DNA of 64,000 bases from a virus (IMGVR_UViG_3300025133_007837:69840-133839); one strand, 5' to 3'. Positions 51,408-64,000 are shown, numbered from the stretch's first letter. Made by a program: numbers and translations. Notes: generated by a model not told the origin, from the letters alone.

Positions 51408-52445
51408 TTGATGAACAATGCTCCCTTTTTTGAGGAGGCCGCGCCTTTATTTAATACAAATAAACAAAGAGGCCAAGAAAAATCTAAAGATGTTGCTATA
51501 AAGCTAAACTCCTTTTCTTTTGGAGATACTTTATCAGCTACGCCAACGATAAGAAAGTTAGCGGAGTATTACGCTAAAAAAATAATAGTGTGCACGCATA
51601 AACCTTTTCTTTTTGAGCACAATCCATATGTTCTTTTTACGATACATGTAGATGATTTTAAACAAGAACATTATGATAAATACGAGGTCTTTGATACTTT
51701 TAATTCAATAGGAAAGGCAGATAGAGCTGGGATAGAAAAAAAATACGCAGCTTTCGATATAAGAAAGATACATTGCACGGAGATAGGCTTTGACTTGATG
51801 CCAGAAGAGCTTCATTGCGATTATTACCCCGGAACAATAGAGTTTAATAGAGGTGACCAAGACTTTCTAGCTAATAACAAATACGCAGTTGTTCATATAG
51901 GACAAAATTGGCCTAGTAGAACTTGGCCAAAAGAGAGCTACGTTAATTTGATAAGAGGGCTGAATAGAAATCACCTAAAGGTTGCGTTAGTTGGGTTTGA
52001 TCAGAAACCTGAGCCGGGCCAATATAACCACGATAAAACTTGCTATAATTTCGATGCTTTAGATTTTGAAGGAGTAAGTTTTTTAAATAGAACTTCCTTA
52101 GATCAAGATTATTATATAACCAAGAACTCAGAGGCTTGCGTGACTATGGATACAGGACAGCTACATCTGGCAGGCTGCACTGACGCTCATATTATATTTA
52201 TAGGAGCTTCTGTTCACCCTTTTTGGAGAGCTCCCTACAGAAAAGGAAGTCAATCTTATAAAATGACTTTCGTCGGTGGCACGTGCGAAGCTTTTTGTGC
52301 GTCGGACCCAAAGTATTCTGTTATAGAGCACGGTACCGTTAATAGTGTTCCCCCTTTGCCTTTTTGCTTAGAAGGGAGGCCTAATTTCGACTGTCAACCT
52401 AGGTGGGAAGACGTTCTTTCTTCTACCTTAAAAGTTACAGAATGA
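51408..52445 (+). CDS. GT9/heptosyltransferase-like glycosyltransferase with Cys-rich C-terminus
   Basis: SFGDTLSATP, W.SRTWP, DTGQLHLA, C..FC..CL..C. Confidence 0.8.
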   Translation: MMNNAPFFEEAAPLFNTNKQRGQEKSKDVAIKLNSFSFGDTLSATPTIRKLAEYYAKKIIVCTHKPFLFEHNPYVLFTIHVDDFKQEHYDKYEVFDTFNSIGKADRAGIEKKYAAFDIRKIHCTEIGFDLMPEELHCDYYPGTIEFNRGDQDFLANNKYAVVHIGQNWPSRTWPKESYVNLIRGLNRNHLKVALVGFDQKPEPGQYNHDKTCYNFDALDFEGVSFLNRTSLDQDYYITKNSEACVTMDTGQLHLAGCTDAHIIFIGASVHPFWRAPYRKGSQSYKMTFVGGTCEAFCASDPKYSVIEHGTVNSVPPLPFCLEGRPNFDCQPRWEDVLSSTLKVTE

Positions 52446-61717: not shown

Positions 61718-64000
61718 ATGGCCCAAGACGAAGTAACCGTAAATCTACAAGGCGATACCGTAACCTCTTCGGTGGTTGACGTTAGTGCGTCTACAATTCC
61801 GGCTTCAACTGTTAATTTTGTAGGGGCTCAGGGTCCCGGCGGAAGTTCTGGTTCTTCTGGTTCTTCTGGATCAAGTGGTACGTCTGGCTCGTCTGGCACT
61901 TCCGGTTCCTCTGGCACTTCCGGTTCATCTGGTAGCTCTGGTACGTCTGGTAGTTCAGGTAGTTCTGGTACATCTGGTTCTTCGGGTACATCTGGTTCGT
62001 CTGGTTCATCTGGTAGTTCGGGTAGTTCAGGGACGTCTGGTTCATCTGGTTCATCTGGTTCATCTGGTACGTCTGGTTCGTCTGGTACCTCGGGTTCATC
62101 TGGAACTTCTGGTTCAGATGGTACGTCTGGAAGTTCTGGTCAAGACGGAGGCTTTGGCGGCGCTTCTTTTAGTTTTGATTTCGATTTAGATAATACAGCA
62201 AATTCTGACCCCGGTTCCGGTGCTATAAAATTTAACGCTTCTATAGCAAGTGGACAAAATACTGCTACTACTTTATATATAGATGATACAGATAAGAACG
62301 GAACAGATATACAAAGCTATTTAAGGACAATAGATGATTCAACATCTACAATAAAAGGCCATTTAAAACTAACAAAAAGACTAGATACAAGTAAATTTGT
62401 TTTATATACTATTAGTTCTGTTAGTGAAAATTCTGGATGGTTTGCTATAACTGTTTCTCCTGTTGATAGTAGTGCTTCTAGTCCTTTTGAAACTACGGAT
62501 GAGATAGTTGCAACTTTTGCTAGAACTGGAGATAAGGGAGAGTCGGGTACTTCTGGAGTAGATGGTACTTCTGGGACAACAGGATCTTCTGGAAGTTCAG
62601 GTACAAGTGGGTCTTCTGGCACAAGTGGGTCTTCTGGGAGTTCGGGTACTTCCGGCTCCAGTGGGACAACTTATGAAATAACTAACGATGGAAATAATAG
62701 AGTTTTGACTTCTGATGGAGATGGCAGCTTCACAGCGGAGTCAAACCTAGCTTTTGACGGTACTACATTAAATATAAAAAATGATTTAACTGTTTCTGGT
62801 GATTTAGTTACTACTGGTATATTCTCTACGGTTAGTGGAAGCGGAGATATAGGTACCAGTACGTCTTATTGGGCTAATCTTTATGTAAATACCGGAACTA
62901 TAAATGAACTTCACACCCTAGAGGAAACAATAGTACTTGGTACTGGGGGAGCTACGATATCAGCTCCTGCCGGAGGAAAAATCGAGTTATTAGGTGGAGA
63001 TGGTGTGGTCGCAAAAGGTTTGGAAGCGAGTCCTACCCTTGAGGGTAATACTACTATCGAATCTGGAATTCATGTTTCTGGTACAGGTATCGTAGGGGGA
63101 GATTTAACAGTTAGTGGTGATCTTTCTGTCTTGGGTAGTCTTGCTGTAAGTGGAGATTTTACCCTAGGAGATCATACTACTGACAAAATCACTGCTAGAG
63201 GTGATCTTTTTGTTGACGATGATGCTTCTATTGGGGGCAACTTCACTATAAGTGGTCAGGACGTTTATTTTAAGGGGGTTCCTACTCAAGCAGACATGAC
63301 TGGTGTTTTAGCTGTTACCGATGGAGGTAAACTTTATAAATCCCATCATGCTGCTAGCAGTGGGACATCTGGTTCAAGTGGGACATCTGGTTCCTCAGGT
63401 AGTTCTGGAACTTCTGGTTCATCTGGTTCTAGTGGTACATCTGGTAGTTCAGGTAGTTCTGGTACATCTGGTTCTTCAGGTACATCTGGTAGTTCGGGTA
63501 GTTCGGGTAGTTCAGGGACGTCTGGTTCCTCAGGCACTTCTGGTTCTTCCGGTTCATCTGGTTCTAGTGGTACATCTGGTTCTAGTGGTACTTCTGGTAG
63601 TAGTGGTACATCTGGTAGTAGTGGCTCTAGCGGGACATCTGGTTCTAGTGGTACTTCAGGTTCAAGTGGAACGTCAGGTTCTTCTGGTTCTAGTGGTACA
63701 TCTGGTAGTAGTGGCTCTAGCGGGACATCTGGTTCTAGTGGTACTTCAGGTTCAAGTGGAACGTCAGGTTCTTCTGGTTCTAGTGGTACATCTGGTTCTA
63801 GTGGTACTTCAGGTAGTAGTGGTTCATCTGGAACATCTGGCTCTTCGGGGTCATCTGGGACAAGTGGTTCTAGTGGTCAAGACGGAAACTTTGGCGGCGC
63901 ATCTTTTCAATATGAATTTAAAACCTCTACCGTTTCAGAGGATCCCGGAAATGGTAGGGTCAGACTAGAAAATAGTACTCAAAATACTAGCGACAAAATA
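61718..64000 (+). CDS. second GTS/GSS collagen-like fibre protein (3' truncated by the window), not in the ORF track
   Basis: ATG 61718 MAQDEVTVNLQG...; G-X-Y tracts alternate with globular domains (DG.FGGASF...DPG.G repeated); no stop seen in this frame. Confidence 0.85.
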   Translation, partial: MAQDEVTVNLQGDTVTSSVVDVSASTIPASTVNFVGAQGPGGSSGSSGSSGSSGTSGSSGTSGSSGTSGSSGSSGTSGSSGSSGTSGSSGTSGSSGSSGSSGSSGTSGSSGSSGSSGTSGSSGTSGSSGTSGSDGTSGSSGQDGGFGGASFSFDFDLDNTANSDPGSGAIKFNASIASGQNTATTLYIDDTDKNGTDIQSYLRTIDDSTSTIKGHLKLTKRLDTSKFVLYTISSVSENSGWFAITVSPVDSSASSPFETTDEIVATFARTGDKGESGTSGVDGTSGTTGSSGSSGTSGSSGTSGSSGSSGTSGSSGTTYEITNDGNNRVLTSDGDGSFTAESNLAFDGTTLNIKNDLTVSGDLVTTGIFSTVSGSGDIGTSTSYWANLYVNTGTINELHTLEETIVLGTGGATISAPAGGKIELLGGDGVVAKGLEASPTLEGNTTIESGIHVSGTGIVGGDLTVSGDLSVLGSLAVSGDFTLGDHTTDKITARGDLFVDDDASIGGNFTISGQDVYFKGVPTQADMTGVLAVTDGGKLYKSHHAASSGTSGSSGTSGSSGSSGTSGSSGSSGTSGSSGSSGTSGSSGTSGSSGSSGSSGTSGSSGTSGSSGSSGSSGTSGSSGTSGSSGTSGSSGSSGTSGSSGTSGSSGTSGSSGSSGTSGSSGSSGTSGSSGTSGSSGTSGSSGSSGTSGSSGTSGSSGSSGTSGSSGSSGTSGSSGQDGNFGGASFQYEFKTSTVSEDPGNGRVRLENSTQNTSDKI

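Follow-up and report, generated by a model that had tools for sequence, protein, structure and literature searches.

Can a phage glycosylate its own fibres? The question is raised by positions 51408-64000 of a 64,000-nt stretch of phage DNA (IMGVR_UViG_3300025133_007837:69840-133839), which was analysed as a whole and is hereafter called the window. Three consecutive glycosyltransferase (GT) genes and a DUF6165-like gene are followed there by genes for two repeat proteins of 1507 aa and >760 aa, all on the + strand, and each was recovered where a first-pass annotation of the window had placed it. According to the portion of PMC4358343 available to us, the enzyme TibC hyper-modifies Ser residues of a repetitive protein encoded next door. 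We found that the pairing of TibC/AAH-type enzymes with Ser/Thr-rich collagen-like fibres is real and recurrent, and it marks a candidate fibre-glycosylation module known from genes alone. On balance, we think it fairly probable that the block is a late-gene module by which this phage glycosylates its own fibres.

TibC/AAH-type enzymes and the fibres encoded beside them

Membership of the BAHT family (autotransporter O-heptosyltransferases) was assigned with the NCBIfam equivalog model TIGR04414 at its cut-off of 200 bits, and a looser count was taken at E<=0.001. The second GT gene encodes a fusion protein in which Pfam detected Glycos_transf_1 (GT4, residues 193-346), Glycos_transf_2 (352-469), and Glyco_transf_9 (838-997). 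Residues 737-1030 of the fusion match TibC (PDB 4rap, E 2.9e-65), and residues 735-1029 score 327.6 bits on TIGR04414, over the BAHT line. The third GT gene encodes a short stand-alone enzyme that matches TibC residues 99-385 and scores 183.6 bits, just under the cut-off. On its sequence we class the short enzyme as a BAHT relative just below the membership line; searching the protein collection at E<=0.001 gave 535 relatives, including a clade of ~297 aa at 58-99% identity.

The functions of individual TibC residues are described in the part of PMC4358343 at hand: Asp110 is the catalytic base, Thr226 and Lys230 sit on the beta-phosphate, Arg286 on adenine N1, and Trp305 on the heptose, while Pro300 determines stereoselectivity and four Cys hold iron. 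When aligned with TibC, the fusion domain kept all nine residues checked (Asp110, Thr226, Lys230, Arg286, Trp305, and Cys339/342/358/370). The short enzyme kept Asp110, Thr226, Lys230, Trp305, and the four Cys, with Ala in place of Arg286; at position 300 the fusion has Gly and the short enzyme Ala. In a set of 92 non-identical phage BAHT domains, Asp110 was retained in 91/92, Trp305 in 92/92, and each Cys in 91/92, with Arg286 kept in 57/92 and position 300 occupied by Gly (42), Ser (32), or Pro (12). This pattern of conservation suggests that the catalytic core and the iron finger are under constraint. The TibC alignments, TIGR04414 scores, and residue conservation together support the earlier assignment of these enzymes as true relatives of TibC and AAH.

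The 1507-aa protein encoded downstream matches Pfam Collagen (PF01391) at E 3.5e-169 and 549.2 bits (cut-off 27.2). It consists, in order, of a conserved N-terminal domain of ~60 aa, a first Gly-X-Y run (residues 62-313), a globular insert, a second run (403-1401), and an S74 domain. The two runs are uninterrupted and hold 84 and 333 triplets, 417 in total; 333 consecutive Gly-first triplets are far beyond chance. Counts for the triplets GTS and GSS were 165 and 132; the X position is occupied by Thr (169) or Ser (158), the Y position by Ser (311). The helix contains 469 Ser, 170 Thr, and 1 Pro, and we found no KGE or KGD and no Lys or Arg inside the runs except Arg313 at a boundary. With one Pro and no KGE/KGD, the fibre therefore lacks both of the usual collagen stabilisers.

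The S74 domain (PF13884, 30.9 bits against a cut-off of 22, residues 1401-1460) begins SDMRYK, presumably the Ser...Lys cleavage motif, and it is this domain that points to a trimeric triple helix. The rise of a collagen helix is 0.286 nm per residue, which would give the fibre a length of ~358 nm if it were fully helical. In the second fibre (Collagen E 1.8e-45, 114 triplets), three GSS/GTS runs alternate with globular domains, and the helical part contains 164 Ser, 42 Thr, and 1 Pro. Composition counts and Pfam agree with the first-pass description of the fibres as Pro-free, Ser/Thr-saturated, and S74-bearing.

How such repeats could fold is suggested by work on other collagens. In the portion of PMC11923368 available to us, KGE/KGD salt bridges generally help collagen-like proteins to fold, (Gly-Pro-Thr)10 stays a random coil as long as its Thr is not galactosylated, and glycosylated Thr can stand in for hydroxyproline as a helix stabiliser.

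Co-occurrence of BAHT enzymes and Ser/Thr-rich collagen

The association of BAHT enzymes with such fibres was measured in both directions. Starting from the repeats, we used a degenerate (GTSGSS)x3 pattern that returned at least 120 IMG/VR stretches, of which the first 80 were examined and 74 whole contigs were searched. All 80 loci hold a Gly-X-Y open reading frame (ORF), with a median of 122.5 triplets and a Ser+Thr fraction of at least 0.5 in 76/80. Collagen of another composition served as the control and was drawn with a (Gly-Ala/Pro-Gln)x5 pattern, again returning at least 120 stretches; the first 80 loci had a median Ser+Thr fraction of 0.13, and after removal of L330, which shares a contig with L276, the remaining 79 loci gave 75 contigs that were searched.

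A BAHT over the cut-off was present on 20/74 Ser/Thr-type contigs and 1/75 control contigs (Fisher p=2.5e-6), and at E<=0.001 the counts were 21/74 and 3/75. The difference was also seen among contigs of at least 40 kb (17/33 versus 1/20, p=7e-4) and among records at least 90% complete (5/6 versus 0/8, p=0.003). All co-occurrence counts and Fisher p values in this study ignore kinship among contigs that are not phylogenetically independent, and the control set may differ from the Ser/Thr set in phage lineage or habitat. Of the 21 positive contigs, 12 have the BAHT within 10 kb of the repeat and 3 have it within 3 kb. When clustered by single linkage at 50% identity, the BAHT domains tied to Ser/Thr collagen are spread over at least 7 of the 14 clusters.

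Starting from the enzymes, we found relatives of BAHT in at least 549 IMG/VR stretches, of which 80 loci were kept and examined together with the window (81 loci). A Gly-X-Y ORF of at least 8 triplets was present within 10 kb of the BAHT in 11/81, and 7 of these 11 ORFs are Ser/Thr-rich. Forty of the 70 loci that had no such ORF were then chosen, and a search of 38 contigs revealed a Collagen match elsewhere on the contig in 19/38, 16 of them over cut-off; among contigs of at least 40 kb the proportion was 15/17. Twelve of these fibres were fetched and had Ser+Thr fractions of 0.55-0.96, Pro fractions of 0-0.12, and Lys+Arg fractions of at most 0.02. Eleven of the 12 had GTS or GSS as their most frequent triplet, and the ORFs reach 2003 aa and 570 triplets. 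The first-pass annotation had named absence of genomic co-occurrence as an outcome that would speak against it. That outcome was not seen, as BAHT enzymes and GTS/GSS collagen co-occur strongly relative to the control, in both directions.

Close pairing recurs in separate settings. The gene order GT9 / GT-BAHT / DUF6165 / fibre and the fibre N-terminus are common to six loci, namely the window, L001, L002, L012, L037, and L067. Matches to the short BAHT in this lineage are 34-90% identical, the fusion varies from 891 to 1277 aa with differing architectures, and the contig ends inside the repeat in 5/5 of the loci other than the window. In a second lineage (L033, L038, L040, L042, and L046), a collagen-like gene immediately precedes the genes for GT4-FkbM and GT4-BAHT fusions, and L009 is a third case of a collagen-like gene near a BAHT. 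Most of the loci have the BAHT domain at the end of a ~716-aa GT4-BAHT fusion, and frequent neighbours include a GT4-FkbM fusion (47 loci), a terminase (29), and a portal (24). When bacterial genome contigs were considered, a Gly-X-Y ORF was found within 10 kb in 3/79 of the best BAHT loci; the pairing is mainly a phage trait.

One case involves a cultured phage. BAHT relatives were found in 4/50,697 annotated phage records, one of them Microcystis phage Mel-JY01 (PP395634.1), where a GTS/GSS collagen-like frame of >1016 aa is followed by a 508-aa 'structural protein' and a 1226-aa fusion. The fusion is annotated as an FkbM methyltransferase, and its C-terminal domain scores 317.4 bits on TIGR04414 (model positions 9-373). 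The GTS/GSS frame (L082 1-3052) is on the + strand and open at the record start; in its place the record lists two hypothetical proteins on the minus strand, with PEVP-type repeats, which is probably a wrong-strand gene call. As judged from its predicted genes, Mel-JY01 carries the same module as the window, and for this reason the question of fibre glycosylation is directly testable. Our literature search found no paper on this phage.

A proposed route to glycosylated fibres and its alternatives

We propose that the two BAHT domains would act in the host cytoplasm, where they would prime Ser residues of the GTS/GSS triplets with a first sugar, with the 1507-aa and >761-aa collagen-like proteins encoded just downstream as acceptors. 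The linked GT4, GT2, and GT9 domains would extend this sugar into a short glycan, and the fibres would trimerise via the C-terminal S74 chaperone domain. In place of the proline/hydroxyproline or Lys-Gly-Asp/Glu salt bridges of other collagens, the helix would be stabilised by its dense O-glycan coat, which may also protect the fibre. The product of the first GT gene is a possible glycan-extending enzyme; it has a conserved Cys-rich C-terminal stretch, and the enzyme is kept in the 6 loci of the lineage.

The sugar itself is less clear. ADP-heptose appears plausible as the donor for the fusion domain and doubtful for the short enzyme, and the donor nucleotide and ring assembly may both differ from those of TibC. 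Heptose is made doubtful by the loss in the short enzyme of Arg286, whose adenine contact bears on ADP-sugar specificity, by the retention of this Arg in no more than 57 of the 92 phage domains, and by Gly or Ala at the stereoselectivity position of the window's enzymes. GmhA, the first enzyme of heptose synthesis, was found on 0/33 BAHT-bearing phage contigs, 7 of which are at least 90% complete, and a check for heptose supply among the neighbours of the Mel-JY01 BAHT gene gave no NCBIfam match. Elsewhere in the window, 21268-22158 encodes an NAD-dependent sugar epimerase/dehydratase (SDR) that falls under every cut-off, with GalE as its best model (179.7 versus 262.3 bits) and 127.5 versus 274.6 bits for the heptose epimerase model. 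It is a possible sugar-nucleotide supply gene.

These doubts about heptose weigh against the proposed route, as do several other observations. In the accessible part of PMC4358343, deletion of the N-terminal barrel abolishes TibC activity on TibA, and a beta-hairpin thumb with Phe265/Val266 builds the TibC dodecamer. Both window domains lack the barrel (TibC residues 1-97): their alignments begin at TibC 88 in the fusion and 99 in the short enzyme, and at position 70 or 82 of the 374 in TIGR04414. In the fusion the thumb tip reads Asn-Arg; in the short enzyme a 6-residue insertion (Tyr...Ala) disrupts it, and a hydrophobic tip is not conserved across the 92 phage domains. The same part of that paper states that TibC and AAH modify Ser, not Thr, so that the earlier expectation of hundreds of glycosylated Ser/Thr is overstated for a BAHT alone. 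At the genome level, 70/81 BAHT loci have no Gly-X-Y ORF within 10 kb, the BAHT and the repeat are >20 kb apart in 5/21 positive contigs, and 53/74 Ser/Thr-collagen contigs, including one 98%-complete record, have no BAHT, which indicates that a BAHT is not obligatory for such fibres. The support for fibre glycosylation is genomic association throughout, and the kinship and possible lineage or habitat differences noted above should be kept in mind when interpreting it.

The GTs may modify other virion proteins, leaving the collagen fibres unmodified or as one of several acceptors, and several features of the window and of related loci point that way and count against the fibres as the target. 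The proteins of 38105-39238 and 47732-48574 have 33 and 25 [ST]G dipeptides, compared to ~11 and ~7 expected, and such [ST]G-rich head-module genes share a terminator-free block with the GT genes. The 654-aa protein of 48574-50538 carries a four-triplet GTS/GSS insert (12 residues) at residue 181. In 22 BAHT loci (e.g. L011 10950-14882), the gene directly downstream of the GT4-BAHT fusion encodes a 1311-aa tail sheath, with PF04984 and PF17482 in its last ~290 residues and a ~1000-aa Ser/Thr-rich N-terminal extension. Known TibC acceptors, as far as the available text of PMC4358343 goes, are beta-helical repeats and not collagen. However, the genome-level association is specific to GTS/GSS collagen genes in both directions, and we regard this reading as unlikely. 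It is also compatible with fibre glycosylation, and both could be true.

A more distant possibility is that the cluster acts on a non-protein acceptor, either the host lipopolysaccharide (LPS) core or capsule, for surface remodelling and superinfection exclusion, or phage DNA, and that its adjacency to the fibres is incidental. The first GT gene gives this idea some footing. Its AlphaFold model (predicted local distance difference test, pLDDT, 68.7) matched Veillonella GT9 (3tov), WaaC, and WaaF at E ~1e-9 and TibC at 2.4e-8 in Foldseek, while hhalign gave a probability of 5% against the BAHT profile. Its NCBIfam matches are to LPS-heptosyltransferase models and lie far below their cut-offs (TIGR02193, 26.7 versus 185.3 bits; TIGR02195, 24.0 versus 134.6). 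By profile and predicted fold it is best described as a generic GT9 that cannot be separated from LPS-type enzymes, and neither hhalign nor Foldseek assigns it to the LPS or to the protein-modifying group; of the earlier heptosyltransferase label, GT9 family membership held and WaaC/WaaF equivalog membership did not. Papers on marine phages, in the portions available to us, read such genes as cell-surface or DNA modifiers (PMC12801897, PMC12619734).

A glycan-building island in L003/L004 also favours a non-protein acceptor and counts against the fibres. These loci are relatives of the window's locus (BAHT 67-68% identical), and in them a BAHT-DUF6165-BAHT arrangement stands among carbamoyltransferase, PIG-L, FkbM, and mannosyltransferase-like genes; no Collagen match was found on the two contigs (36 and 77 kb). 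In L004 (10891-20645), BAHT-DUF6165-BAHT is followed by an FkbM methyltransferase, a carbamoyltransferase, a CAP59-like transferase, and a 1534-aa protein that combines two GT4 domains with PIG-L deacetylase and Anp1-like domains, which hints at methylated or carbamoylated glycans. Against a non-protein acceptor stand the score of the fusion over the cut-off of TIGR04414, an equivalog for protein O-heptosyltransferases, and the overlap or close spacing of the GT genes with late structural genes. The association of BAHT with Ser/Thr collagen relative to the control is likewise hard to explain by LPS or DNA modification, and we judge this reading very unlikely.

The association could also arise with no enzyme-substrate relation, through common descent and a common position in the structural module, within a few large clades of uncultured phages. 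Close kin do occur among the positives: L393/L403 have identical fibre C-termini, L397/L404 have near-identical triplet counts, and 71/122 BAHT domains fall in one cluster (50% identity, single linkage). The contigs with distant genes and the neglect of kinship in our statistics point the same way. But the pairing spans BAHT architectures of 294-1458 aa with GT4, GT2, GT32-like, or FkbM partners, and it recurs in records of 66 kb to 436 kb. Its short gene distances in 12 of the 21 contigs, and control collagen-bearing contigs that almost never carry a BAHT, also speak against ancestry as the whole explanation, which we consider quite unlikely.

We therefore return to fibre glycosylation as the reading we prefer, and to what it could mean. 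More tentatively, BAHT enzymes may have a second, perhaps larger substrate class in the Pro-free, salt-bridge-free GTS/GSS fibres of uncultured aquatic phages, with dense O-glycosylation as a third way for collagen to fold and stay stable, next to hydroxyproline and Lys-Asp/Glu clamps. Under the same tentative reading, the fibres of such phages would be ~0.1-0.5 micrometre long and sugar-coated at hundreds of Ser per chain. If this is true, the BAHT family, known only as a bacterial adhesin accessory, would also be a common phage tool for making glycoprotein fibres, and virion glycosylation, so far a curiosity of mycobacteriophages, would extend to many large uncultured phages. It would account for the folding of triple helices without proline and salt bridges, suggest a route to designed sugar-stabilised collagens, and affect how phage fibres meet host surfaces, grazers, enzymes, and particles in water.

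Gene block, phage lineage, and comparison with known systems

The region 51408-64000 is one co-directional + strand gene block with an operon-like layout (Table 1), and every gene from 47322 to the window end is on the + strand. Homologues begin MNE.../MKRRIL..., and ATG 51411 and ATG 52442 are the likely starts of the GT9 and fusion genes. With these starts, the GT9, fusion, short BAHT, and DUF6165 genes overlap by 4 nt at each junction; the first fibre gene starts 19 nt past the DUF6165 gene. A strong intrinsic terminator (47238-47261; 10-pair stem, 7 GC pairs, T run) directly follows a capsid-like gene. Past 47261, we found no terminator-like site on the + strand until two weak 6-pair stems inside the repeats of the second fibre gene. 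Long minus-strand ORFs across the repeats are by-products of the repeat, and the 121-aa ORF between the fibre genes may encode a fibre accessory or assembly protein.

Table 1. Positions of the genes and the S74 domain within the block, counted from the first letter of the window
Feature	Coordinates	Strand	Evidence
GT9-family glycosyltransferase (P0001, 345 aa)	51408..52445	+	Pfam PF01075 Glyco_transf_9, E 4.3e-9
GT4 + GT2 + BAHT (TibC/AAH-type) fusion (P0002)	52403..55498	+	Pfam, TibC match, TIGR04414
Short stand-alone BAHT-like enzyme (P0003, 294 aa)	55495..56379	+	TibC match, E 4.2e-37
DUF6165 protein (P0004, 130 aa)	56376..56768	+	Pfam PF19662, 51.9 bits, cut-off 27
Giant collagen-like fibre protein (P0005, 1507 aa)	56788..61311	+	Pfam Collagen + Peptidase_S74
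S74 chaperone domain of the 1507-aa fibre	60988..61167	+	Pfam PF13884, E 3.4e-7
ORF between the two fibre genes (P0006, 121 aa)	61351..61716	+	ORF call; no Pfam family
Second collagen-like fibre protein (P0007, >761 aa, 3' open)	61718..64000	+	Pfam Collagen, 152.9 bits

The DUF6165 protein is predicted to be a helical bundle of five helices (pLDDT 87.1). Its model had no PDB fold match at E<=0.001, its Atlas neighbours are DUF6165 clusters only, and the literature search returned no paper on the family. A DUF6165 gene adjoins a BAHT gene in the window lineage, in L003/L004, and in the two unrelated loci L111 and L129 only; it is not a universal BAHT partner.

Two further observations concern DUF6165. 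One 337-aa protein (P0036) is an in-frame DUF6165-BAHT fusion in which DUF6165 is N-terminal, at the position of the TibC barrel; it is known from one member on one contig and may be an artefact of assembly. Two unrelated phage loci have a 2-oxoglutarate (2OG)-Fe(II) oxygenase (PF13640) encoded between DUF6165/BAHT and the gene for a giant Ser/Thr collagen (L129 9273-9902, E 2.7e-14; L111 4022-4630, E 3.5e-16), and these collagens are proline-free.

Elsewhere the window encodes a large terminase (TerL; 36225-38078, PHROG/Pfam) and a tubulin-like protein (41163-42353). The Atlas neighbours of the 46052-47215 protein are Mu GpT-like and Phage_capsid_4 major capsid clusters, which we treat as a lead. 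TerL is at most ~25% identical to that of any isolate among the closest annotated phage terminases, which suggests a phage without a close cultured relative, and a DNA-level search of annotated phages gave a single 51-nt match. For the PhoH gene (31100-31867), 36/38 returned IMG/VR loci were 66-100% identical, which suggests that the lineage is often sampled, though only ever as short contigs. A PhoH-based control set was rejected, as its matches came mostly from the window's own lineage, and was replaced by the collagen control described above.

The closest known systems are the TibC-TibA and AAH-AIDA-I pairs of E. coli (PDB 4rap/4rb4). The window's domains have in common with TibC/AAH a GT-B/GT9 core with the catalytic Asp, phosphate-binding Thr/Lys, and sugar-binding Trp, and the same four-Cys iron-finger insertion. 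In both cases a soluble cytoplasmic enzyme is encoded beside a long, repetitive, Ser-rich surface protein. Unlike TibC/AAH, the window's enzymes are phage-encoded, one is fused to GT4 and GT2, and a DUF6165 gene is a partner; they lack the N-terminal barrel and the hydrophobic thumb tip, and their sugar donor is putative. The neighbour is a Gly-X-Y collagen-like fibre with S74, not a beta-helical autotransporter: the adjacent genes encode Collagen+S74 and Collagen proteins and no autotransporter acceptor was seen among them, although no search was aimed at autotransporter beta-domains. A full-text literature search found no paper linking TibC-like enzymes with phages or collagen-like proteins.

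Glycosylated and phage-borne collagens each offer a partial parallel. BclA of Bacillus anthracis and the cuticle collagen of Riftia are collagen-like surface fibres with O-glycans at hydroxy-amino-acid positions, according to the part of PMC11923368 available to us. To our knowledge, their repeats contain Pro (Gly-Pro-Thr) and their enzymes are not BAHTs, whereas the window fibre is Pro-free with Ser in Y and Thr or Ser in X; glycosylation was seen in those fibres and is predicted from genes here. The collagen-like tail-fibre proteins of E. coli O157:H7 prophages are likewise phage-borne, trimeric, and collagen-like (PMC3368898, in part) and are stabilised by Pro in X and ~22% charged residues (the same portion of PMC11923368), neither of which the window fibre has.

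Viruses that glycosylate their own particles provide the remaining comparisons. Mimivirus encodes collagen-like proteins together with the enzymes that glycosylate them and bears a fibre layer on its virion; unlike the window's phage, it is a eukaryotic giant virus whose modification proceeds via hydroxylysine and whose enzymes belong to unrelated families. In mycobacteriophages, structural proteins of the virion are glycosylated in the cytoplasm by the phage's own GTs, and a shielding role is proposed for the glycans (Freeman et al. 2023, as cited in the available portions of PMC12619734 and PMC12801897). The mycobacteriophage glycans are carried on the C-terminal ends of capsid and tail-tube subunits, whereas the module in the window would use BAHT-type priming to modify hundreds of repeat positions on giant fibres.

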